Sequence record: NC_047829.1
Reading direction: 5' to 3' (one strand)
Source: Escherichia phage ST31
Length of the DNA stretch: 39,693 bases
The notes below the pieces were generated by a model, which was given only the letters and a program-made list of their open reading frames with translations, did no database searches and was not told the origin of the DNA. The position numbers and the translations under genes are program-made. This document shows positions 984-39,693 of the stretch, piece by piece. The stretch's first letter is position 1. Each line of letters begins with the position of its first letter.

Positions 984-1177
984 TATCTGCACTATTGATA
1001 GCCATAGGCTATGGACTTATCATCTACGTACTGGTGAGTGACATCAACAAGGCGCGTAAAGTCTATAAATTCAACTATGTACGTCTGGGTCGCTGGACTG
1101 TACGTCAACCTAACGGACGATTCATGCGCAACTTAGCGAACGTCTGGGATATAGCAACTCTTGGGAGCAAACTGTAA
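980..1177 (+). CDS. Small early hypothetical protein (65 aa) with N-terminal hydrophobic segment
   Basis: ORF track; start overlaps upstream stop, stop overlaps downstream start. Confidence 0.45.
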   Translation: MISALLIAIGYGLIIYVLVSDINKARKVYKFNYVRLGRWTVRQPNGRFMRNLANVWDIATLGSKL

Positions 1178-1437
1178 TGAAAACCGTATACACTCACAAA
1201 TCATCTAGCCGTAGCCGCATGGAGCAAGCCAATCGTGATATGTTCTTACAGCGCCGCATGATAGCTGAGGGCCATAAGTCCGAGCTGATGTGTCTGGTGT
1301 ATGGGGGACGACCAATCACCGACGATGGTAGACTTCTGGTCTCAGGCTGGAAGGCGATAGACCAACGGTCAACCATCAAGCACACGACTCATGGTGACTT
1401 CAGTCATCTCCACGCTAACCCATTGATATGCAAGTAA
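1177..1437 (+). CDS. Early hypothetical protein (86 aa)
   Basis: ORF track; GGGAG upstream; start ATG overlaps previous TAA; not present in T7 at this position. Confidence 0.5.
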   Translation: MKTVYTHKSSSRSRMEQANRDMFLQRRMIAEGHKSELMCLVYGGRPITDDGRLLVSGWKAIDQRSTIKHTTHGDFSHLHANPLICK

Positions 1438-1442
1438 TTCTG

Positions 1443-1465
1443 ACTTAACTATCACTATAGGACTC
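1443..1465 (+). promoter_or_regulatory. Phage RNA polymerase promoter, immediately upstream of the RNA polymerase gene
   Basis: TAACTATCACTATAGGA, one of 11 copies of the CTATCACTATAGG motif; analogous to T7 CGACTCACTATAGGGAGA. Confidence 0.7.
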
Positions 1466-1535
1466 AAGGTCTAAGACTCCAAGTGAAAGACCAAAGAGAC
1501 TTTAAAGTGAAAGACTAATAACAAGGACTTTAAGT

Positions 1536-4217
1536 ATGAGCGTCATCTCTATTGACAAGCACGACTTCTCTGATGTGTCGAACGCCATTGAGCCGTTTAA
1601 CCTGCTGGCTGACCACTACGGGCAAGACCTTGCAGTCAAACAGCTTCAGCTTGAGCACGAGGCATACACTGAAGGCGAGCGACGTTTCATCAAGAACCTT
1701 GAGCGCCAGACTGATCGCGGGGAACTGGCAGACAATCAGGTCGCCAAGCCTTTGATGCAGACTCTGGTCCCTAAGATTGCGCAAGCCGTCAAGGAGTGGC
1801 ATGAAGGTCCAGACGGGAAGCTGTCAACCTCTCGTCCGAGCGTAGCGTTCACCATGCTGAGCACTGAAGAGAAGGCCGTCAAGGACCGCTCTCTGCGCAT
1901 CTCCTGTGAGTCTGCTGCGGTTATCATACTGAAGGTCATTCTCTCCAAGCTGGTCAAGCCTGAAGGGATACCGATTACACCTATGGCCTCCGCGATAGGT
2001 CGCACACTTGAAGATGAAATCCGTTTCGGTCGAATTCGAGACAAGGAGCAGGAGCACTTCAAGAAGGCGATAGCTGAGAACCTGAACAAGCGAGCGGGGG
2101 TATCCTACAAGAAAGCCTACATGCAAGCGGTCGAGACCTCCATGCTGGAGCAAGGCCAACTGGAAGATGCGTGGGGGACTTGGAGTCCGACCGAGGCGGT
2201 CCACGTTGGCATCAAGATGCTTGAGATTGTCATCCAGTCTACACAGCTGGTCGAGCTTAAGCGTTACGGTGCTGGCAATGCTGCGGCTGACGTTGAGATG
2301 GTCCACCTGTCAGACTTCTGGGTCAAGAAGATGGCCCAACGTGGCTTCAGCCTTGCGGGTATCGCGCCAGTCTATCAACCTTGCGTAGTTCCACCTAAGC
2401 CGTGGACTGGAGTCGTGGGCGGTGGGTATTGGGCCAAAGGTCGCAGACCATTGCCACTGATTCGCTTAGGGTCTAAGTCTGCGGTGGCACGTTACGAAGA
2501 CGTGTACATGCCTGAAGTATATGACGCTGTTAACATCATCCAGAATACGCCTTGGAAAGTGAACAAGAAGGTGCTGGACGTGGTGAACATGGTCGAGAAG
2601 CTGAACAATACGCCTATTGATGACATCCCTCAAATGGAGCCACTGAAGCCTGAGGACTATGCGGGTGAGACTGAAGAAGAACTCAAGGCATGGAAGAAAG
2701 CTGCTGCCGGTATCTATCGTCGCGAGAAGGCCCGACAGTCACGCAGATTGTCGCTGAGTTTTATCGTCAGCCAAGCGAACAAGTTCTCTCAGTTCAAGGC
2801 CATCTGGTTCCCGTACAACATGGACTGGCGCGGTCGCGTCTACGCTGTGCCGATGTTCAACCCTCAGGGTAACGACATGCAGAAAGGTCTTCTGACTCTG
2901 GCAGTCGGTAAGCCTATTGGTGCTGATGGTTTCAAATGGCTGAAGGTCCACGGTGCAAACTGTGCGGGTGTCGATAAAGTAACCTTCGAGGAGCGCATCA
3001 AGTGGGTGGAAGATAACCACGACAACATCATGGCTGCTGCCAAAGCACCGATGGATAGCATTGAGTGGTGGGGCAGGTTAGACTCTCCGTTCTGCTTCCT
3101 TGCGTTCTGCTTCGAGTATGCTGGCGTAATGCACCACGGCCTGTCTTACTCCTGCTCGCTACCGATAGCGTTCGATGGGTCCTGCTCTGGGATTCAGCAC
3201 TTCAGCGCGATGCTTCGAGACCACATCGGTGGACATGCAGTAAACCTAACGCCATCCGGTAAGGTCCAAGACATCTATCGAATCGTGTCTGACCGCATTG
3301 AGGAAGAACTCAAAGTCCTGCTGGTTAACGGTACGGACAACGAGATGGTGACTCACGAGGACAAGAAAACTGGTGAGATTACCGAGCGTCTCAAGCTGGG
3401 GACACGAGAGCTGGCCCGTCAGTGGCTGACCTACGGTATGTCACGCAAGGTCACTAAGCGTTCGGTCATGACTCTGGCCTACGGGTCGAAAGAGTACGGA
3501 TTCGCAGACCAAGTGTACGAGGACATCGTGATGCCAGCTATTGACTCAGGGTCTGGCGCTATGTTCACTGAACCAAGCCAAGCGTCTCGCTTCATGGCTA
3601 AGATGATTTGGGAAGCTGTGAGTGTGACCGTAGTCGCTGCGGTTGACGCGATGAAGTGGCTTCAAGGTGCTGCCAAGCTGCTGGCTGCTGAAGTGAAGGA
3701 CAAGAAGACTGGCGAAATCCTGAAGCCATGCCTTCCGGTACACTGGGTAACACCTGATGGTTTCCCGGTCTGGCAGGAATACCGCAAGAAGGATACCACT
3801 CGTCTGAACCTGATGTTCTTAGGGTCATTCAATCTTCAGCCTACCGTCAACAGAGGTACGAAGAAAGAGCTGGACAAGCACAAGCAGGAGTCAGGCATTA
3901 GCCCGAACTTCGTCCACTCACAAGATGGCAGCCACCTCCGCAAGACTGTAGTCCACACTCACCGCAAGTATGGCGTGATGTCATTCGCAGTGATTCACGA
4001 TAGCTTCGGGACCATCCCGGCTGACGCTGAGTATCTGTTCCGTGGTGTCCGTGAGACGATGGTCGAGACCTACCGCGACAACGATGTGCTGCTTGACTTC
4101 TACGAGCAGTTCGAATACCAGCTTCATGAGAGCCAGCGTGACAAGTTGCCTGAGCTTCCGAAGAAAGGTAAACTGAATATCGAAGACATCTTGTCTTCAG
4201 ACTTTGCATTCGCTTAA
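1536..4217 (+). CDS. Single-subunit DNA-directed RNA polymerase (T7 gene 1 homologue)
   Basis: 893 aa; long colinear blocks matching T7 RNAP as recalled (PFNLLADHYG, MFQPCVVPPKPWTG, AIWFPYNMDWRGRVYAV, DGSCSGIQHFSAMLRD, HDSFGT, C-terminal FAFA). Confidence 0.98.
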   Translation: MSVISIDKHDFSDVSNAIEPFNLLADHYGQDLAVKQLQLEHEAYTEGERRFIKNLERQTDRGELADNQVAKPLMQTLVPKIAQAVKEWHEGPDGKLSTSRPSVAFTMLSTEEKAVKDRSLRISCESAAVIILKVILSKLVKPEGIPITPMASAIGRTLEDEIRFGRIRDKEQEHFKKAIAENLNKRAGVSYKKAYMQAVETSMLEQGQLEDAWGTWSPTEAVHVGIKMLEIVIQSTQLVELKRYGAGNAAADVEMVHLSDFWVKKMAQRGFSLAGIAPVYQPCVVPPKPWTGVVGGGYWAKGRRPLPLIRLGSKSAVARYEDVYMPEVYDAVNIIQNTPWKVNKKVLDVVNMVEKLNNTPIDDIPQMEPLKPEDYAGETEEELKAWKKAAAGIYRREKARQSRRLSLSFIVSQANKFSQFKAIWFPYNMDWRGRVYAVPMFNPQGNDMQKGLLTLAVGKPIGADGFKWLKVHGANCAGVDKVTFEERIKWVEDNHDNIMAAAKAPMDSIEWWGRLDSPFCFLAFCFEYAGVMHHGLSYSCSLPIAFDGSCSGIQHFSAMLRDHIGGHAVNLTPSGKVQDIYRIVSDRIEEELKVLLVNGTDNEMVTHEDKKTGEITERLKLGTRELARQWLTYGMSRKVTKRSVMTLAYGSKEYGFADQVYEDIVMPAIDSGSGAMFTEPSQASRFMAKMIWEAVSVTVVAAVDAMKWLQGAAKLLAAEVKDKKTGEILKPCLPVHWVTPDGFPVWQEYRKKDTTRLNLMFLGSFNLQPTVNRGTKKELDKHKQESGISPNFVHSQDGSHLRKTVVHTHRKYGVMSFAVIHDSFGTIPADAEYLFRGVRETMVETYRDNDVLLDFYEQFEYQLHESQRDKLPELPKKGKLNIEDILSSDFAFA

Positions 4218-4508: not shown

Positions 4509-4979
4509 ATGTTCGGTAAGTCAAAACTTAAAGCACAAATCAAAGAGTTGAGCATGAAGGTGACATACTTGGAGCGAGAGGTAACTGTCCTGGACAAGGA
4601 CAATGAGCGACTGAAGGATAAGCTCGCTGAATCAGAGCGTAAGCGCTTAACGCCACCAGCGGCTGTAACTGTAAAGCGTATGGTAGGCATCAATTTCAAG
4701 GCACTGTTCGACGGTAAGTATCAGCCCACTGAGTTCAAGATAGGTCTTGGCAAGTGTGGGAAGGTGGTCCACTACTTCGAGGTGACTAAGCGTGACGACC
4801 GGACGCTTACCATCCACCAGTATCACACAGACGGGTCGTCTAAGGACTTCGAGTACCGACTGAGCGACATTGATGGAAGCATCCAATACGACTACGAGAT
4901 GATGGAAGTATATGGTAAGGAGGCTGAGAAGGAACGTATAGTCCAAGCCTTCCGCAACATGCCACGATTCATGCCCTAA
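4509..4979 (+). CDS. Hypothetical protein (156 aa) with predicted N-terminal coiled coil
   Basis: ORF track; charged heptad-like N-terminus (KLKAQIKELSMKVTYLEREVTVLDKDNERLKDKLAESERK); no T7 counterpart recognised. Confidence 0.55.
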   Translation: MFGKSKLKAQIKELSMKVTYLEREVTVLDKDNERLKDKLAESERKRLTPPAAVTVKRMVGINFKALFDGKYQPTEFKIGLGKCGKVVHYFEVTKRDDRTLTIHQYHTDGSSKDFEYRLSDIDGSIQYDYEMMEVYGKEAEKERIVQAFRNMPRFMP

Positions 4980-4997
4980 ACTATCACTATAGGATTA
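4975..4997 (+). promoter_or_regulatory. Phage RNA polymerase promoter
   Basis: AAACTATCACTATAGGA. Confidence 0.75.
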
Positions 4998-5040
4998 GAC
5001 TCAAGGTCATGACTCAAAGTCGTGGCCTTCATGATTAACC
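4995..5040 (+). promoter_or_regulatory. RNase III processing hairpin (T7 R1.1-like)
   Basis: TTAGACTCAAGGTCATGACTCAAAGTCGTGGCCTTCATGATTAAC; AAGGTCA pairs with TGGCCTT; resembles T7 R1.1 (AAGGUCAUUCGCAAGAGUGGCCUUUAUGAUUG) as recalled. Confidence 0.6.
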
Positions 5041-6643: not shown

Positions 6644-6666
6644 CCTAAGCTATCACTATAGGACAA
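6644..6666 (+). promoter_or_regulatory. Phage RNA polymerase promoter
   Basis: GCTATCACTATAGGACA. Confidence 0.7.
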
Positions 6667-7466: not shown

Positions 7467-7625
7467 ATGAGCCTTGAGGAAAAGAAATACATCGTGGAGC
7501 TTGAGGGTCGCGTTCAGGCCTTCGAGGTTCCGGTGTACGCAAAGTCTCTTGAAGAGGCTACCCTGAAGTCCCAAGAGTATGAGGACGCTGGGTTTGTGGT
7601 CGGACGGATTCGTCCTGAGACCTAA
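7467..7625 (+). CDS. Host RNA polymerase inhibitor (T7 gene 2 homologue)
   Basis: 52 aa from ATG 7467 (GGAAGGAG RBS); [13 protein letters not shown]...[11 protein letters not shown] matches T7 Gp2 FEVPIYAETLDEA...PAGFEVTRVRP as recalled; track ORF 7404 has an N-terminal extension I do not favour. Confidence 0.85.
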
Positions 7626-7643
7626 ACTATCACTGTAGGACAG
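7621..7643 (+). promoter_or_regulatory. Phage RNA polymerase promoter (variant CACTGTAGG)
   Basis: AAACTATCACTGTAGGACA; one substitution from the consensus core. Confidence 0.6.
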
Positions 7644-9775: not shown

Positions 9776-9991
9776 GTGATTAAACTTATCGAATTTCTTG
9801 GTCGTCTGGTGGTGCGTGGTTATCGTCGTGCTGCGGTACTGGAACGAAAGGTAGAAAAGAAGACTGCTGACGGTGCGGCTGAGGCTGCTGCTCTGGCTGA
9901 CAAGCTGACCATTGCGTCACTGGAAGCTGGCATGAAGGCACGTCAAGCTGACACCAAAGCTGACCAGTTGGCCCAGTTCTTCAAAGCCTAA
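9776..9991 (+). CDS. Hypothetical protein (71 aa), probable GTG start
   Basis: ORF track; AGGAGA RBS before GTG 9776; alanine-rich helical product. Confidence 0.45.
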   Translation: MIKLIEFLGRLVVRGYRRAAVLERKVEKKTADGAAEAAALADKLTIASLEAGMKARQADTKADQLAQFFKA

Positions 9992-10009
9992 ACTATCACC
10001 TTAGGGATG
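9987..10009 (+). promoter_or_regulatory. Degenerate phage promoter-like sequence (CACCTTAGGG)
   Basis: AAACTATCACCTTAGGGA; two core mismatches; may be weak or inactive. Confidence 0.35.
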
Positions 10010-11890: not shown

Positions 11891-12055
11891 GTGTTAAAGA
11901 AACTTAAAGCTCGCTACCATCGGTTCATGTACAAATGGTGGAGCGAGGAAGCAACCTGCCTGTCCAACATTCTGGGAGACCAAAGGTTCGACTCTAAGGC
12001 ATGGAAGAAGGCTAACCGTAAGTTCATGTACCACTTCTTACGTACAGACTTCTAG
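11891..12055 (+). CDS. Small hypothetical protein (54 aa), GTG start
   Basis: GGAGG 7 nt upstream of GTG 11891; basic and aromatic-rich; translated by eye. Confidence 0.3.
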   Translation: MLKKLKARYHRFMYKWWSEEATCLSNILGDQRFDSKAWKKANRKFMYHFLRTDF

Positions 12056-12056
12056 G

Positions 12057-12103
12057 TCTAGACTCAAGGTCATTCACAGCGAGTGGCCTTTATGATTAGA
12101 CTA
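12057..12103 (+). promoter_or_regulatory. RNase III processing hairpin (T7 R1.1-like)
   Basis: AGACTCAAGGTCATTCACAGCGAGTGGCCTTTATGATTAGAC; second copy of the conserved hairpin. Confidence 0.6.
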
Positions 12104-12118
12104 AACGGAGGATTAACC

Positions 12119-15775: not shown

Positions 15776-15798
15776 ACTAAACTATCACTATAGGGACT
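15776..15798 (+). promoter_or_regulatory. Phage RNA polymerase promoter
   Basis: AAACTATCACTATAGGGAC. Confidence 0.75.
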
Positions 15799-15859
15799 TT
15801 AGGCCCTAAGATATGACTATAAGATAGACTTTAGTCTTAACTTAAAGAGGAGATTCAAG

Positions 15860-17428: not shown

Positions 17429-18989
17429 ACGTGAAGGATTTGCTGCTGAAGGCGCGAAGGCAGTTTATGATAGACTGAAGAACGGTAGACAGCCATATGA
17501 GACACGCGCTCAGAACTGTGCTGCTGTCACTATCCCGTCACTGTTTCCTAAGGAGTCCGACAACTCGTCTACGGAATACGTGACGCCGTGGCAAGCTGTG
17601 GGTGCTCGCTGTTTGAACAACTTGGCTGCAAAGCTGATGTTGGCATTATTCCCTCAGTCACCGTGGATGCGACTGACAGTCTCAGAATATGAGGCCAAGA
17701 CCTTGAGTCAGGACTCAGAGGCTGCTGCTCGTGTTGACGAGGGGCTTGCTATGGTCGAGCGTGTGTTGATGGCCTACATGGAGACTAACAGTTTCCGTGT
17801 GCCATTGTTCGAAGCTCTGAAGCAGCTTATCGTCTCCGGTAACTGTCTGCTCTACATTCCAGAGCCTGAACAGGGAACCTACAGTCCTATGCGAATGTAC
17901 CGCTTAGTGTCCTACGTTGTTCAACGTGATGCTTTCGGTAACATCTTGCAGATTGTGACTCTCGACAAGGTAGCGTTTAGTGCTCTACCTGAAGACGTGA
18001 AGTCACAACTCAACGCAGACGACTATGAGCCTGACACCGAGCTGGAAGTGTATACGCACATTTACCGTCAGGACGACGAGTATCTGCGCTACGAGGAAGT
18101 GGAAGGCATTGAGGTGGCAGGGACCGAGGGTTCTTACCCACTGACTGCATGTCCGTACATCCCGGTACGAATGGTTCGACTGGACGGTGAAGACTATGGT
18201 CGTTCTTATTGCGAGGAGTATCTGGGAGACCTGAACTCGCTGGAGACGATTACAGAAGCTATCACCAAAATGGCTAAGGTAGCCTCCAAGGTGGTGGGCC
18301 TCGTCAACCCGAACGGTATCACGCAACCTCGTCGTCTGAATAAGGCGGCTACAGGTGAGTTCGTGGCTGGTCGCGTTGAGGACATCAACTTCCTGCAACT
18401 GACGAAAGGTCAGGACTTTACGATTGCCAAGTCGGTGGCTGACGCTATCGAGCAACGTTTAGGCTGGGCCTTCCTTCTTAATAGTGCTGTTCAGCGTAAT
18501 GCTGAGCGAGTGACTGCTGAAGAGATTCGTTATGTTGCTGGCGAACTGGAGGCGACCTTAGGTGGCGTGTACTCAGTACAATCACAAGAGCTTCAGTTAC
18601 CTATCGTCCGTGTGCTGATGAACCAGCTTCAGTCTGCTGGCATGATTCCTGACCTTCCGAAAGAAGCGGTAGAGCCTACTGTCTCCACTGGTCTGGAAGC
18701 TCTGGGACGTGGTCAGGACTTGGAGAAGCTAACTCAGGCAGTCAACATGATGACCGGGCTACAGCCTCTGCAACAGGACCCAGACATTAACTTGCCGACC
18801 CTGAAGCTGCGACTGCTGAATGCCTTAGGCATTGACACCGCTGGTCTGCTTCTGACTCAGGACGAGAAGATGCAACGTATTGCTGAACAATCCGCTCAAG
18901 GAGCTGTGGTCAACGGTGCGTCTGCTGCTGGTGCTAACATGGGTGCTGCTGTAGGTCAGGGAGCTGGTGAGGACATGGCTCAAGCCTAA
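17421..18989 (+). CDS. Portal (head-to-tail connector) protein (T7 gene 8 homologue)
   Basis: 522 aa; PYETRAQNCA, IPSLFPK, TPWQAVGAR, YRLVSYVVQRDAFGN, RMVRLDGEDYGRSY, ITQPRRL, ERVTAEEIRYVA, DPDINL. Confidence 0.97.
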   Translation: MAEREGFAAEGAKAVYDRLKNGRQPYETRAQNCAAVTIPSLFPKESDNSSTEYVTPWQAVGARCLNNLAAKLMLALFPQSPWMRLTVSEYEAKTLSQDSEAAARVDEGLAMVERVLMAYMETNSFRVPLFEALKQLIVSGNCLLYIPEPEQGTYSPMRMYRLVSYVVQRDAFGNILQIVTLDKVAFSALPEDVKSQLNADDYEPDTELEVYTHIYRQDDEYLRYEEVEGIEVAGTEGSYPLTACPYIPVRMVRLDGEDYGRSYCEEYLGDLNSLETITEAITKMAKVASKVVGLVNPNGITQPRRLNKAATGEFVAGRVEDINFLQLTKGQDFTIAKSVADAIEQRLGWAFLLNSAVQRNAERVTAEEIRYVAGELEATLGGVYSVQSQELQLPIVRVLMNQLQSAGMIPDLPKEAVEPTVSTGLEALGRGQDLEKLTQAVNMMTGLQPLQQDPDINLPTLKLRLLNALGIDTAGLLLTQDEKMQRIAEQSAQGAVVNGASAAGANMGAAVGQGAGEDMAQA

Positions 18990-19007
18990 ACTATCACTAT
19001 AGGAACA
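18985..19007 (+). promoter_or_regulatory. Phage RNA polymerase promoter
   Basis: AAACTATCACTATAGGAAC. Confidence 0.75.
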
Positions 19008-19990: not shown

Positions 19991-20013
19991 ACTAAACTAT
20001 CACTATAGGGAGA
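19991..20013 (+). promoter_or_regulatory. Phage RNA polymerase promoter upstream of capsid gene (phi10-like)
   Basis: AAACTATCACTATAGGGAGACC, closest to full T7 consensus; strong RBS AATAGGAGA before ATG 20116. Confidence 0.8.
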
Positions 20014-21294: not shown

Positions 21295-21336
21295 AACCCC
21301 TTGGGTGCCTTCGGGTGCTTGAGGGGTTTTTTGCTT
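21295..21336 (+). terminator. Late transcription terminator (T7 Tphi-like)
   Basis: AACCCCTTGGGTGCCTTCGGGTGCTTGAGGGGTTTTTTG: G-U-rich stem, TTCG loop, T6 tract; matches T7 Tphi as recalled. Confidence 0.85.
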
Positions 21337-24538: not shown

Positions 24539-24561
24539 CCTTAACTATCACTATAGGGACT
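24539..24561 (+). promoter_or_regulatory. Phage RNA polymerase promoter (phi13-like), embedded in an inverted repeat
   Basis: TTAACTATCACTATAGGGAC; flanked by GGGCCTATAG (24524-24533) and its reverse complement CTATAGGCCC (24560-24569). Confidence 0.75.
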
Positions 24562-24590
24562 ATAGGCCCTTAAAGTTATAAGGAGACTTT

Positions 24591-30900: not shown

Positions 30901-32320
30901 TACCTTACGTGACACCTTGAAGATTCTCACTGGTCGTGCTCGACGTGATGGTGCTGACGATGCGGCCTTCGCTACCGTGATGCGCACAATGACAGACCTA
31001 TCGTTCTTCGCTAAGAATGCCTACATGGGTGTTCAGAACTTAACGGAGATTGGCGGTATGCTGGCTCGTGGTAACGTTCGTGCAATGATGCATGGAGTCC
31101 CGATTTTCCGTGACCTAGCCTTCCGTAACAAGAAGGTCGGGGCCTCAGAGATTAAGGACCTGCACAATGTTATCTTCGGTAAGGAACTAGACGACTCAAT
31201 CCGTCCGTCTAAACAGGATGTCATTGACCGTCTGAGATCTTACAGTGACCTAGGTCGTGGTACAGCTACAGCTCTGGGGACTGCCAAGTATTACACTGGT
31301 GAACTTGCAGTACGCTCTCCGTTCACTAAAGTCCTCAACGGTACGACAAACTACCTGTTAGATGCTGGACGTCAAGGCTTCCTGTCTGACATCGTGGAGC
31401 ATAGTCTGACTGGCAGTAAGCGTAAGTTCGATGACCGCTGGCTGAAGACCGCTGGTATCTCTGACGAGCAGTGGAAGGGCATTAAGTCCCTAATCCGTGA
31501 GTCAGTGACTCGTGGTCCAGACGGGAAGTACACCATCAAGGATAAGAAGGCGTTCAGTCAGGACCCAAGGGCTATGGACCTGTGGCGTATGGGTGACACC
31601 ATCGCTGACGAAACGTTACTACGACCTCATAAGCTGTCTAACATGGATGCCAAGGCTTATGGTCCTCTCGCTAAGACTGTCCTTCAGTTTAAGAACTTCG
31701 TCATCAAGTCCATCAATGGACGTACCATGCGAACCTTCTATAACGCTACGAAGAACAACCGAGCGATGGACGCTGCTCTGTCCACTGTGATGTCTATGGG
31801 TCTGGCTGGTATCTACTACATGGCTCAGGCGCACGTCAAGGCTTACGCTATGCAGGATGGTCGAGACCGTGACTACCTCAAGCAGGCTCTTGACCCGACG
31901 ATGATTGGTTATGCGGCTCTATCCCGTAGTTCACATCTGGGTGGCCCACTTGGGGTAGCTAACATTCTGGGTGGCATCGCTGGGTATGAGGACACTAAGA
32001 TGCTCCGCTCGTCTATCCTACCTCGTTCACCTACAGAGAAGCCTGAACGTGCTATCACATATGGTGCGGCTACAAGTGACCCTGTGATGAATGTTGTTGG
32101 TAACTTCTTGGAGCAGGTTCCAGCTTTCGGATATGCTGCTAACGTTGGTGCTTCGGCTTACAACTTGGCTGGCTACCTCAAGGCTGATACTCGTGTCAAC
32201 GAACGTGACTACATGACCGGGATGTATAATACGTTCCGTGAACTGGTTCCGAACGACCCAATTACCCAGAAGCTATTACTTGGAACGTTTGAGGAGCAAG
32301 GCATCCACATCAAGGACTAA
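27932..32320 (+). CDS. Internal virion protein D (T7 gene 16 homologue) with a non-T7-like N-terminal module
   Basis: 1462 aa; body matches T7 gp16 (RLEARETARN, DLVRSPTGMQSGASGK, VKARVDEML, GISH..QF..SS..EENI.GLVG.ENNSFLEARNLFD, RRVNGDIAIMG, LRPHK, PNDP.TQ); first ~130 aa (MATRGIRNNNPGNIR...) lack the SLT signatures I recall. Confidence 0.95.
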   Translation: MATRGIRNNNPGNIRVSKDQWEGMTGDDGAFVIFDSPESGVRALGKNLLSYGRQGYDSIEKIINRWAPPNENDTKAYIDSVVAATGIPATQSLDLSNPDTLSSLVQAISFHETGSRYNPEVYQQGVTRALNGISPKTPPVSANVFDALTEGLKAKPKVALGENLPTAAGLNIEGQAPEAPNESFGEMFYKATGETMQEREDRSTWFGFGAATEAEVKNSMVGVAIRAGQTEDSLDVIGDVFNPTRWNNHKWTREELDQIRNAGVLPQYYGVITGGSPQNLTELINLALENQKLDQEKAKSGTGAQLAAGVIGAGVDPLTYVPIAGQVGKGGKLVNKMFTVAAQSGALAGVSEMARTSVAGGDAHVAEAILGGALFGGGMTAIADGLGRALGRNTNEFAGPATRLEARETARNVDGQDLSRLPIQEGEQTFSHQGVKFADVPNEPGSVRLEDGSILIGENPLNPKTRQVFDEVIEPERAAAGVNLGGLTEIGLKLLRSENPEIRGVAADLVRSPTGMQSGASGKIGTTASDVFERLRAVDHRFYNDIDDAVTEALKDPYFQTAFWRDNSALREDVYKRVALAIEDGSGNLKAELTPGELKVYDLLKNQFDAKREMMENPAMFGRTDAQSIFPGSRFKGTYVPVVYSSQMKQLYIKELGSPEALQEAIKKSWLTSYASRPEVKARVDEMLAEQLRASQPAAGKTVGTAPNHRSSVEAARDQMKLDDAATQAIDKVAELKDVLTNAEKRVADREKKLQNSKDRLASHEAKLKELEEKLAAKPKSKTIPVKIESRKQMIETQKSHVRINTERLDYMKGQADKVRDRITKATTEAEAAVAAAKGQKTSVDGQATTAGETTSGNASQAAPEVTMDMVEKYANDKAYGISHTEQFERSSVMEENINGLVGLENNSFLEARNLFDNDMEITLPNGKQFSVNSLREWDMDKIAPAYNRRVNGDIAIMAGTGKTTKDMKDLVETLMNKAGDDGKLKGEVSTLRDTLKILTGRARRDGADDAAFATVMRTMTDLSFFAKNAYMGVQNLTEIGGMLARGNVRAMMHGVPIFRDLAFRNKKVGASEIKDLHNVIFGKELDDSIRPSKQDVIDRLRSYSDLGRGTATALGTAKYYTGELAVRSPFTKVLNGTTNYLLDAGRQGFLSDIVEHSLTGSKRKFDDRWLKTAGISDEQWKGIKSLIRESVTRGPDGKYTIKDKKAFSQDPRAMDLWRMGDTIADETLLRPHKLSNMDAKAYGPLAKTVLQFKNFVIKSINGRTMRTFYNATKNNRAMDAALSTVMSMGLAGIYYMAQAHVKAYAMQDGRDRDYLKQALDPTMIGYAALSRSSHLGGPLGVANILGGIAGYEDTKMLRSSILPRSPTEKPERAITYGAATSDPVMNVVGNFLEQVPAFGYAANVGASAYNLAGYLKADTRVNERDYMTGMYNTFRELVPNDPITQKLLLGTFEEQGIHIKD

Positions 32321-32338
32321 ACTATCACTATAGGAAAC
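32316..32338 (+). promoter_or_regulatory. Phage RNA polymerase promoter (phi17-like)
   Basis: AAACTATCACTATAGGAAAC overlapping gene 16 stop. Confidence 0.75.
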
Positions 32339-35187: not shown

Positions 35188-35447
35188 CGCAGATGGACTT
35201 AGAGAAGTTCCTCTTGATGCTTGATACTGAACGTGCTCGACTCATGCTGCAAGACCTGCGGGATGACTCTAAGCGTTCACCTCAGCTCTACAACGCCATT
35301 GAGAAGCTACTTGCTCGTCACAACTTTGTGTTAAGCAAGGTGTCTGTGGACGAGAAGACGCTGGCTGATATGGAGGCCCTGAACGCAGAGTACGATAAGG
35401 TGCTTTCAGCGACTGAGGATAATGACACCGGGTATGGTGTTCAATAA
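35184..35447 (+). CDS. Terminase small subunit (T7 gene 18 homologue)
   Basis: 87 aa; F..MLDT, RSPQLYNAI.KLL.RH.F matches T7 gp18. Confidence 0.9.
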   Translation: MTQMDLEKFLLMLDTERARLMLQDLRDDSKRSPQLYNAIEKLLARHNFVLSKVSVDEKTLADMEALNAEYDKVLSATEDNDTGYGVQ

Positions 35448-35450
35448 GTG

Positions 35451-35496
35451 TTAGACTCAAGGTCATTACTATATGTAGTGGCCTTTATGGTTAACA
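35451..35496 (+). promoter_or_regulatory. RNase III processing hairpin (T7 R18.5-equivalent)
   Basis: TTAGACTCAAGGTCATTACTATATGTAGTGGCCTTTATGGTTAACAC; third copy of the conserved hairpin. Confidence 0.6.
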
Positions 35497-35548
35497 CTAA
35501 CTAGTGGAGGCGACTCTACGTGAAATCTGATAAACCGGGAGGGCAACT

Positions 35549-37852: not shown

Positions 37853-37875
37853 ACTTAACTATCACTATAGGGAAG
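37853..37875 (+). promoter_or_regulatory. Phage RNA polymerase promoter near right genome end (phiOR-like)
   Basis: TTAACTATCACTATAGGGAAGACC after terminase, as T7 phiOR. Confidence 0.75.
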
Positions 37876-38450: not shown

Positions 38451-38635
38451 TCTCACAGTTCAAGAACCTCAAGTCTCCCCCATAGGCCCTCTTTCAGTCC
38501 AGACCAAAGGCCCTACCCAGTCTATCATAAGGTTGGACCGAGGGTCAAGACTTCAGGTCAACGATAGGTTGAGGCTATGGCTTAGGGAAGGACGATAGGT
38601 AGGGACTATGGGTCTGTCTCTGAGTCTCTATCTGT
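38451..38635 (+). repeat. Probable direct terminal repeat (single collapsed copy) containing the physical genome end
   Basis: Begins TCTCACAGT...CCCCCATAGG and ends GTCTGTCTCTGAGTCTCTATCTGT, paralleling T7 TR start (TCTCACAGTGTACGG...) and end (GTGTCTCTCTGTGTCCCTATCTGT) as recalled; boundaries approximate. Confidence 0.4.
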
Positions 38636-38654
38636 ATAGCCATAGGTCTCAACA

Positions 38655-38745
38655 ACCATAAGTCCTACACCTACAGTCTCACTAACCTACAGTATCAACC
38701 ATAAGACACTCACAGCCTACAGTCATAGACCTACAGTTAATAGAC
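38655..38745 (+). repeat. Array of short direct repeats (ACCTACAGT-like) on the left-end side of the terminal repeat
   Basis: At least five CCTACAGT/CCTACAC units between 38660 and 38740. Confidence 0.45.
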
Positions 38746-38850
38746 ACAAAGCTATAGACTTAAGGTCAAAGACATGTTAGTCAAAGACTATATCCTCTTA
38801 GTCACCATGGGGCCGACGATAGCTCAATCAATATTATTTAAGATTACCTA

Positions 38851-38879
38851 TTGACTACAGGTCTAGACTATGGCTTAAT
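38851..38879 (+). promoter_or_regulatory. Host sigma70 early promoter (T7 A1-like)
   Basis: -35 TTGACT (38851-38856), 17-nt spacer, -10-like CTTAAT; AT-rich upstream; flanking sequence parallels T7 A1 region. Confidence 0.5.
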
Positions 38880-38991
38880 AGCTTCCGTCAACACGACACG
38901 GCAATAACCGGATAGTGAAGACGCCGGGTCATCCCGGTTAAGTAGACAGCCTGATAAGTCATACGAACAACAGGCAGATGACAGAAAGTAG

Positions 38992-39021
38992 TTGACAAGT
39001 AGTACCGACTTAAAGTAGTAT
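38992..39021 (+). promoter_or_regulatory. Host sigma70 early promoter (T7 A2-like)
   Basis: -35 TTGACA (38992-38997), 18-nt spacer, -10 TAGTAT; preceded by CCGGTTAAGTAGACAGCCTGATAAGTC, near-identical to T7 sequence between A1 and A2 as recalled. Confidence 0.55.
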
Positions 39022-39139
39022 GTACCACGTAGCAAGATGGCGTAGGGATAGGAACCGAGAAACCTGCCCGTGACCAGCCAAGGATAAGGCACTAGCTGTG
39101 AGTCGAATTCGGTCACTCACCGCATAAAAGAATAACAGG

Positions 39140-39168
39140 TTGACAGCCTCCTTTAAAAGCTGTAAGCT
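39140..39168 (+). promoter_or_regulatory. Host sigma70 early promoter (T7 A3-like)
   Basis: -35 TTGACA (39140-39145), 17-nt spacer, -10-like TAAGCT. Confidence 0.4.
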
Positions 39169-39284
39169 GTACCACATCGAAACGACAGTGAGTCCCAACA
39201 CTGAAACGGGATAGCACGGCGACGACAGCCAACGCAAATGCTCTTTAACAATCTGGATAAACTCTTAATGTGCGCCGATAGCGA

Positions 39285-39345
39285 CTAACTACAGGGTCTT
39301 TGAGTCTACACCTGAAGGCCCTGACTGATAGTCACTAACTTAACG
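39285..39345 (+). promoter_or_regulatory. Leader hairpin upstream of gene 0.3-slot ORF (RNase III site candidate)
   Basis: ACTACAGGGTCTTTGAGTCTACACCTGAAGGCCCTGACTGATAGTCACTAACTTAACGG; CAGGGTC pairs GGCCCTG; near-duplicate at 39608-39660. Confidence 0.4.
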
Positions 39346-39346
39346 G

Positions 39347-39601
39347 ATGGACACTATGAAACACTTAAGCACAATCACTAATCACAATGAAGTATTCATG
39401 AACACTAAAGGTTATGCGTGGATTCAGCTTAAAGAGATGACAGGAGCGCGTCACCGTGTGGTAGTGCGCAAGGTCTCAAGCAAGCAGTTCAGCAACTACA
39501 GCGTAGATACTGTGCGTATAGACAACGAGACCTACCTGATAGACTCGCAGATAACCGTGAGTCCTACAGCTAGCGTCTCAGCTCCTTATTTCGCTAACTG
39601 A
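39347..39601 (+). CDS. Early protein of unknown function in the gene 0.3 (Ocr/SAMase) slot
   Basis: 84 aa ORF, first gene after the sigma70 promoters; no resemblance to T7 Ocr (not acidic) or to T3 SAMase as recalled. Confidence 0.6.
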   Translation: MDTMKHLSTITNHNEVFMNTKGYAWIQLKEMTGARHRVVVRKVSSKQFSNYSVDTVRIDNETYLIDSQITVSPTASVSAPYFAN

Positions 39602-39607
39602 GAGTGA

Positions 39608-39660
39608 TTAACTACAGGTCGTTAGACTCATAGCGGCCTGACTGATAGTCACTAACTAAA
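39608..39660 (+). promoter_or_regulatory. Leader hairpin upstream of kinase-like gene (RNase III site candidate)
   Basis: ACTACAGGTCGTTAGACTCATAGCGGCCTGACTGATAGTCACTAACTAAAGG; second copy of the 39285-39345 element. Confidence 0.4.
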
Positions 39661-39671
39661 GGATAAACAAG

Positions 39672-39693
39672 ATGAAACTGATAGGCAAAGGCG
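39672..39693 (+). CDS. 5' end of kinase-like gene, continuing at base 11 of the window
   Basis: ATG 39672 after AAGGA; MKLIGKG...; last 10 nt of the window (GGCAAAGGCG) are identical to the first 10 nt. Confidence 0.5.

Follow-up and report, generated by a model that had tools for sequence, protein, structure and literature searches.

Is the RNA polymerase gene of a K1F-like phage transcribed by the host enzyme only, or also by the enzyme that it encodes? In the textbook view, T7 gene 1 is a purely early gene, transcribed solely by the host polymerase, and K1F-like phages appear to be wired differently. These phages find wide use, both in studies of phage therapy and as providers of orthogonal polymerases. 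A self-amplifying loop around gene 1 could affect the speed of cell takeover, the sensitivity to inhibition of the host polymerase, and the behaviour of K1F-type polymerase and promoter parts in synthetic circuits.

The window, that is, the whole stretch of DNA analysed here (39,693 nt), contains the entire genome of a K1F-like podophage (Kayfunavirus, Studiervirinae) in circularly permuted form. Over positions 1100-1900, its identity is 95.5% with Escherichia phage TM1 and 93.8% with K1F. Nucleotide 1 of K1F aligns to window position 38451, which therefore marks the physical left end; the early region begins there, passes over the end of the window, and reaches to about 1535. The window starts and ends with the same 10 nt (GGCAAAGGCG), which gives it the look of a circularly closed assembly. 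From the ATG at 39673 (MKLIGKGAFTKCY...), an early ORF crosses the junction (39693 to 1) and ends at 513; it matches phrog_11084 (E=2.5e-93), and K1F has gene 0.3 at this place instead.

The promoter site upstream of gene 1

Gene 1 (1536..4217, + strand) encodes a single-subunit RNA polymerase of 893 aa (Pfam RNA_pol, E=5.7e-106; RPOL_N), which is 99.2% identical to the polymerase of PE3-1, 98.7% identical to that of K1F over 855 residues, and 63.8% identical to that of T7; 2,749 phage records match it. Upstream lies the last early ORF (1177..1437, + strand; 86 aa; phrog_7066), the positional counterpart of K1F gp0.38. The intergenic gap of 98 nt between the two ORFs (1438-1535) houses the sequence ACTTAACTATCACTATAGGAC at 1443-1463 on the + strand, with a predicted start at G1460. 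The full element at 1443..1465 (ACTTAACTATCACTATAGGACTC), which we name phi1 here, covers promoter positions -17 to +6; the stop codon of the early ORF precedes position -17 by 5 nt, and the distance from the promoter to the ATG at 1536 is 73 nt. From the letters of this DNA, the first-pass annotation had proposed a consensus-like phage promoter about 75 nt ahead of the polymerase start codon. Its 17-mer TAACTATCACTATAGGA matches exactly at 1446-1462, and the leader of the predicted phage-polymerase transcript is 76 nt long (1460..1535). Allowing up to three mismatches, the 17-mer occurs ten times in the genome, always on the + strand, against 0.09 matches expected from shuffled sequences, in which the maximum was 2. 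The proposal therefore holds.

The ten predicted starts are 1460, 4992, 6661, 7638, 15793, 19002, 20008, 24556, 32333, and 37870. The first promoter after the gene-1 site (4975..4997, start 4992) is the counterpart of phi1.1 and is followed by an R1.1-type hairpin. Both the 17-mer match and the weight matrix identified the promoters at 6644..6666 (start 6661), 7621..7643 (start 7638, a CACTGTAGG variant), 15776..15798 (start 15793), 18985..19007 (start 19002), 24539..24561 (start 24556), and 32316..32338 (start 32333). The promoter at 19991..20013 (start 20008) lies upstream of the capsid region and has a GGGAGA start, and a phiOR-like promoter is found near the right genome end (37853..37875, start 37870). 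All of them are on the + strand. The copy with the start at 37870 shares the core ACTTAACTATCACTATAGG with the gene-1 site, and the two are identical from -17 to +2.

When a leave-one-out weight matrix was built from the other nine promoter copies, the gene-1 site scored 28.4 bits, compared with 35.6-42.4 bits for those nine copies and 17.2 bits for the next best genome position after a weaker candidate at 10004 (25.6 bits). The lower score of the gene-1 site is due to its flanks (-22..-18 and +3..+8). The site is an element of about 23 bp from -17 to +6 with the core CACTATAGG and a start G after TATA. Multiple near-identical copies are oriented in gene direction within gaps or at gene ends, and the same genome encodes the cognate T7-type polymerase (ORF 1536-4217). 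The gene-1 site is thus a genuine, conserved promoter of the T7 group (Studiervirinae) belonging to the K1F specificity class, and, on sequence and comparative grounds, it is very probably functional.

The start sequence of the gene-1 site is GGAC. The middle-region promoters at 4992, 6661, and 7638 all start with GGA, and four later promoters (15793, 20008, 24556, and 37870) start with GGGA. The best reading of the GGAC start is that the gene-1 promoter would be of the middle-class type.

The weaker candidate mentioned above is an eleventh promoter-like site, CCTAAACTATCACCTTAGGG, at 9987-10009 with a predicted start at 10004, about 140 nt before the primase/helicase ORF (10148); the counterpart position in GW1 has the variant TCACTAAAGG. 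Two of the promoters have a partial second copy of the core directly after them (stretches 24549-24566, CACTATAGGGACTATAGGCCC, and 15786-15806, CACTATAGGGACTTTAGGCCC), a pattern that is also kept in Pisces and GW1.

Conservation and co-variation with polymerase specificity

The promoter before gene 1 was found in 30 of the 30 Kayfunavirus relatives examined, among them K1F, 20 IMG/VR sequences, Pisces, GW1, Eclo_IJM, ENT2, IME278, SAKp10309, and Ro45lw. K1F has the identical sequence ACTTAACTATCACTATAGGACTCAAGGTC at the same place before gene 1. Within clade 1, the gene-1 site is invariant from -13 to +8, and the adjacent intergenic bases vary. Position -14, where the 17-mer TAACTATCAC... has its first T, varies between T and A, just as it does among the other promoters of the window genome.

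Cronobacter phage GW1 uses the promoter sequence TTAAACCCTCACTATAGG at 12 sites, and the site located 76 nt before its gene 1 is GATTAAACCCTCACTATAGGACTCAAGG, that is, of the specificity of GW1 itself. Citrobacter phage CR8 from the sister genus Caroctavirus, the polymerase of which is 78.7% identical to the window polymerase, has promoters of the form AAGGAAGGTACACTATAGG with one copy before gene 1. The specificity loop of the polymerase is RLNLMFLGSFNLQ in the window, RLDLMFLGTFRLQ in GW1, and RIKLMFMG-VQYR in CR8. The loop TRLNLMFLGSFNLQ is common to the window phage, K1F, and Pisces (with LLF for LMF in Pisces), and the GW1 loop TRLDLMFLGTFRLQ resembles that of the T3-like phage phiYeO3-12, just as the GW1 promoter resembles the T3 promoter. 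Promoter positions -12..-8 and the loop accordingly pair as AACTATCAC with SFNLQ (window, K1F, and Pisces), AACCCTCAC with LD..TFRLQ (GW1), and GGAAGGTACAC with a distinct loop (CR8). In all three promoter classes (K1F-type, GW1, and CR8), the copy before gene 1 follows the specificity of its own lineage. Such tracking of polymerase specificity would not be expected of a relic or of a purely structural RNA element.

When the specificity loop of K1F was built into T7 polymerase, the enzyme showed activity on a T7 promoter bearing the K1F-subfamily consensus at -12..-7 (PMC3458549). Biochemical data on a close relative point in the same direction as the co-variation. Purified Ro45lw polymerase initiates in vitro at the G of ACTTAACTATCACTATAGGGA, its minimal promoter (PMC12272871). 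The Ro45lw polymerase is 94% identical to the window polymerase (843/893 residues) with a near-identical specificity loop, and the gene-1 site of the window is identical to ACTTAACTATCACTATAGGGA from -17 to +2.

The Pisces/Ro45lw clade carries a gene-1 promoter with the substitution -2 T>A, giving CACTAAAGG (Pisces 3269-3277, Ro45lw 2410-2418, and nine further sequences). The substitution occurs in none of the other ten promoters of Pisces, the one whole genome of this clade examined, which have CACTATAGG or variants at -3. It may weaken the gene-1 promoter of the clade. Since T7 phi1.5 and phi1.6 also carry CACTAAAGG, the variant is still a plausible promoter.

Probable transcription of gene 1 by its own product

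We consider it likely, from the comparisons above, that the gene-1 site works as a promoter for the single-subunit RNA polymerase of this phage, immediately ahead of the gene that encodes it. A cognate promoter on the same strand (start 1460) precedes the ATG at 1536, and a simple scan detected no terminator between them. The first-pass annotation had suggested that the phage polymerase could transcribe its own gene; the co-variation of the site with the specificity loop, the use of a near-identical sequence by the 94%-identical Ro45lw polymerase, and the lack of a terminator-like site before the ATG all support that suggestion.

By analogy with T7, the host RNA polymerase would start at early promoters near the left end (about 38451-39400) and read into gene 1. 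The same simple scan found no terminator-like site on the + strand of 1-1535, including the intervals from the promoter to the ATG and from the early genes to gene 1; host read-through should therefore yield the first phage polymerase molecules. The newly made polymerase would then bind at 1443-1465, start at G1460, and transcribe the 76-nt leader, gene 1, and the genes beyond. Gene 1 would thus count among the early as well as the middle genes, and its product would amplify its own synthesis by positive feedback. If T7 is a guide, a promoter of the GGA class would be weaker and the first to be inhibited by the phage lysozyme, by which the loop might be closed. Literature searches for transcriptomes or 5'-end maps of Kayfunavirus or K1F found none that were relevant. 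After the capsid region, at 21308-21335, there is a terminator-like hairpin, CCTTCGGGTGCTTGAGGG followed by GTTTTTTGCT, which probably corresponds to the late terminator of T7; transcripts from 1460 would meet their first strong stop there.

A promoter before gene 1 is already known from other phages, so that our contribution is a confirmation together with a comparative argument and not a discovery. The CR8 record (Caroctavirus) has a predicted promoter at 3356-3378 and the ATG at 3460, and the record of Pseudomonas phage UNO-SLW4 (Pifdecavirus) has a PHIRE-predicted promoter at 3814-3839 with the polymerase gene at 3925; both differ in sequence from the window site (GGAAGGTACACTATAGG and AAAAACCCTCACCWAAAC, respectively). 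For the Kayfunavirus Sparklingdew, eight CTWAACTATCACTATAGG repeats were listed as promoters, and one of the eight lies at the 3' end of the gene that immediately precedes the polymerase gene (PMC13298934). Relative to the promoter set of K1F, Ro45lw, and Sparklingdew, the window site is an ortholog without material difference. Self-transcription of gene 1 was neither tested nor discussed in the studies of Sparklingdew, Ro45lw, and the K1F loop (PMC13298934, PMC12272871, PMC3458549). The main texts of the papers on IMM-002, KBNP1315, phiIBB-PF7A, ICP3, and Kvp1 mention phage-specific promoters and do not give their position relative to gene 1.

The idea of self-amplification is likewise already published, for the T7-like Pseudomonas phage LUZ100, where ONT-cappable-seq mapped a phage-specific promoter, phi1, to the position immediately ahead of the polymerase gene; in the authors' proposal, read-through by the host enzyme sets the system going, and the phage polymerase then boosts its own transcription (PMC10134795). 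LUZ100 is only distantly related and has temperate features, and the loop was proposed to be gated by a MarR-like repressor, whereas the window phage is lytic and we noticed no such repressor in it.

The self-amplifying loop apparent in K1F-like phages is absent from T7, T3-like, and K11-like phages. T7, phiYeO3-12, and BA14 have a similar layout, in which the early genes are followed by an RNA hairpin region and gene 1, and the CAAGGTC theme of the window leader also occurs in their gene-1 leaders. Unlike the window phage, these three phages have no phage promoter before gene 1, and the first one after the left end comes after gene 1. In BA14, no phage promoter is annotated before phi1.05, and in phiYeO3-12 the place of the promoter is taken by R1, annotated as a putative RNase III site. 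In Cornelius, a K11-like phage, only a phiOL-like site near the left end is present, and there is none before gene 1. The first-pass annotation had contrasted the window with T7, stating that T7 gene 1 is transcribed by the host polymerase only. This is right in that no phage promoter lies directly before T7 gene 1, but it is not strictly exact: the T7 record shows phiOL, a T7 promoter, at nt 405, ahead of the entire early region. A short way before gene 1 (3171), the same record has C, a minor E. coli promoter, at 3113.

The circuit logic, a polymerase gene under its own cognate promoter with positive feedback, is shared with the "T7 autogene", in which Dubendorff and Studier reportedly placed the T7 polymerase gene under a T7 promoter in 1991 and for which repression is said to have been needed for stability. 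The autogene is artificial, whereas the arrangement in the window is natural and resides in a lytic genome, where runaway expression is harmless.

Could the promoter be real and yet have been selected for another role? It might give the fast phage polymerase its earliest point of entry, for pulling in the rest of the DNA and starting middle transcription, or it might prime replication, with the transcription of gene 1 being incidental. A weight-matrix scan of the early region (38451-39693 and 1-1440) found no position above 8 bits, and the genome thus has no counterpart of phiOL, which makes the gene-1 promoter the leftmost phage promoter. With no phage promoter between the physical left end (about 38451) and 1460, the site is the earliest point on the genome at which the phage polymerase could engage; T7 and Cornelius have the phiOL-type promoter near the left end instead. 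The leader is rich in A+T (63%, with 43% A), and the region after the promoter at the annotated origin of phiYeO3-12 is also A+T-rich. Nevertheless, entry and middle transcription could be served almost equally well from the promoter at 4992, and Kayfunavirus, Caroctavirus, and Pifdecavirus all keep the promoter exactly in the gap that separates the last early ORF from gene 1. We therefore regard it as improbable that transcription of gene 1 is only incidental to such a role, and a role of this kind would in any case be compatible with autoregulation. Positive feedback on gene 1 may still be a side effect of a promoter selected as the leftmost start of middle-gene transcription.

The leader and a candidate RNase III hairpin

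The leader from 1460 to 1535 ends with a ribosome-binding site, AAGGA (1523..1527, + strand), in the context GGACTTTAAGTATG, as in T7 gene 1.1. It begins with the motif GACTCAAGGTC at +2 to +12 (1461..1471, + strand), of which exact + strand copies occur at 4998, 12061, and 35454. These three copies lie in strong hairpins of the type TAGACTCAAGGTCAT...GTGGCCTTTATGATTA, which are homologous to the stretch immediately downstream of T7 phi1.1A (AAACTCAAGGTCATTCGCAAGAGTGGCCTTTATGATTGACC), which we take to be the T7 R1.1 RNase III site. The layout of the gene-1 leader is like the middle-class layout of T7 phi1.1A and R1.1, with a promoter, then ACTCAAGGTC within a few bases, and then the ribosome-binding site context GGACTTTAAGTATG. 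It differs from it in that the 3' arm GTGGCCTTTATGATT present at 4998, 12061, and 35454 is absent. Of the R1/R1.1-type theme AAGGTCAT...GTGGCCTT, an irregular hairpin of about 20 bp with an internal loop, the leader thus has the 5' motif and not the 3' partner, and only the 5' half of the motif is present. The folds of the leader (1460-1545) and of the read-through RNA (1420-1545) were as stable as those of shuffled sequence (z = 0.12), and fold stability therefore gives no stand-alone support for a structured RNA. The first-pass annotation had noted that the leader begins with the motif seen in the RNase III hairpins. This link holds only in part: the motif is indeed shared at 1461-1471, but the leader lacks the 3' partner and the fold stability of such a hairpin.

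A different candidate hairpin (1452..1510, + strand) could form only in RNA read through from upstream, and the same fold is predicted in every lineage. In this hairpin, TCACT at promoter positions -8..-4 (1452-1456) pairs with AGTGA (1506-1510), with the inner stems AGG/CUU, CUC/GAG, and GGUCU/AGACC. The sequence AAGTGAAAGAC occurs twice in the leader (1481-1491 and 1505-1515, within 1481..1515 on the + strand), and TCACT in the promoter core could pair with either of them. The position of the candidate hairpin is that of the annotated putative R1 RNase III site of phiYeO3-12, just before gene 1. According to RNAalifold with 13 distinct relatives, the hairpin sequence is conserved with none of the 15 pairs compensatory, in an alignment that contains a register shift in clade 2.

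These features raise the question of whether the conserved element might be mainly an R1-type RNase III hairpin in host-made early transcripts, the 5' arm of which merely looks like a promoter. The annotated R1 site of phiYeO3-12 at the same position would agree with such a view, as would the TCACT/AGTGA pairing, which is possible in every lineage and extends to a perfect 11 bp in the Pisces/Ro45lw clade. However, positions -12..-8 lie outside the predicted stem and yet switch with the promoter specificity of each phage, for which a hairpin cannot account; the z-score of 0.12, the lack of compensatory pairs, and the missing canonical 3' partner also stand against it. We consider this explanation very unlikely. 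An origin of the site as a functionless relic, as a scar left by recombination, or by a chance match is scarcely credible and was rejected, given ten matches against 0.09 expected, the invariance from -13 to +8 in clade 1, and the co-evolution with specificity over three promoter classes.

With the site taken as a working promoter, its core might perform double duty. Positions -8..+2 would form the 5' arm of the R1-type hairpin (1452-1510), which could be processed in host read-through RNA, whereas RNA made by the phage polymerase from 1460 would lack this arm. We regard such a dual function as rather doubtful. If true, the two sources of gene 1 mRNA would differ in their 5' ends and possibly in stability or translation, which would amount to a built-in switch of polymerase expression as control moves from the host to the phage enzyme. 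The Pisces/Ro45lw clade would agree with a dual function: there, the substitution -2 T>A gives a perfect 11-bp stem between TATCACTAAAG and CTTTAGTGATA, the latter located downstream. What makes the stem suggestive is that only read-through RNA coming from upstream could contain the hairpin, and the combination of the substitution with a perfect stem suggests selection acting jointly on promoter strength and the hairpin.

The three T7-type RNase III-like hairpins of the genome are located at 4998-5040, 12055-12105, and 35447-35500, with predicted stabilities from -17.7 to -31.5 kcal/mol. The hairpin at 4998-5040 comes directly after the promoter at 4992, and the other two have no detectable promoter in front of them. 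Pisces and GW1 do have a promoter before the counterpart of the hairpin at 12061.
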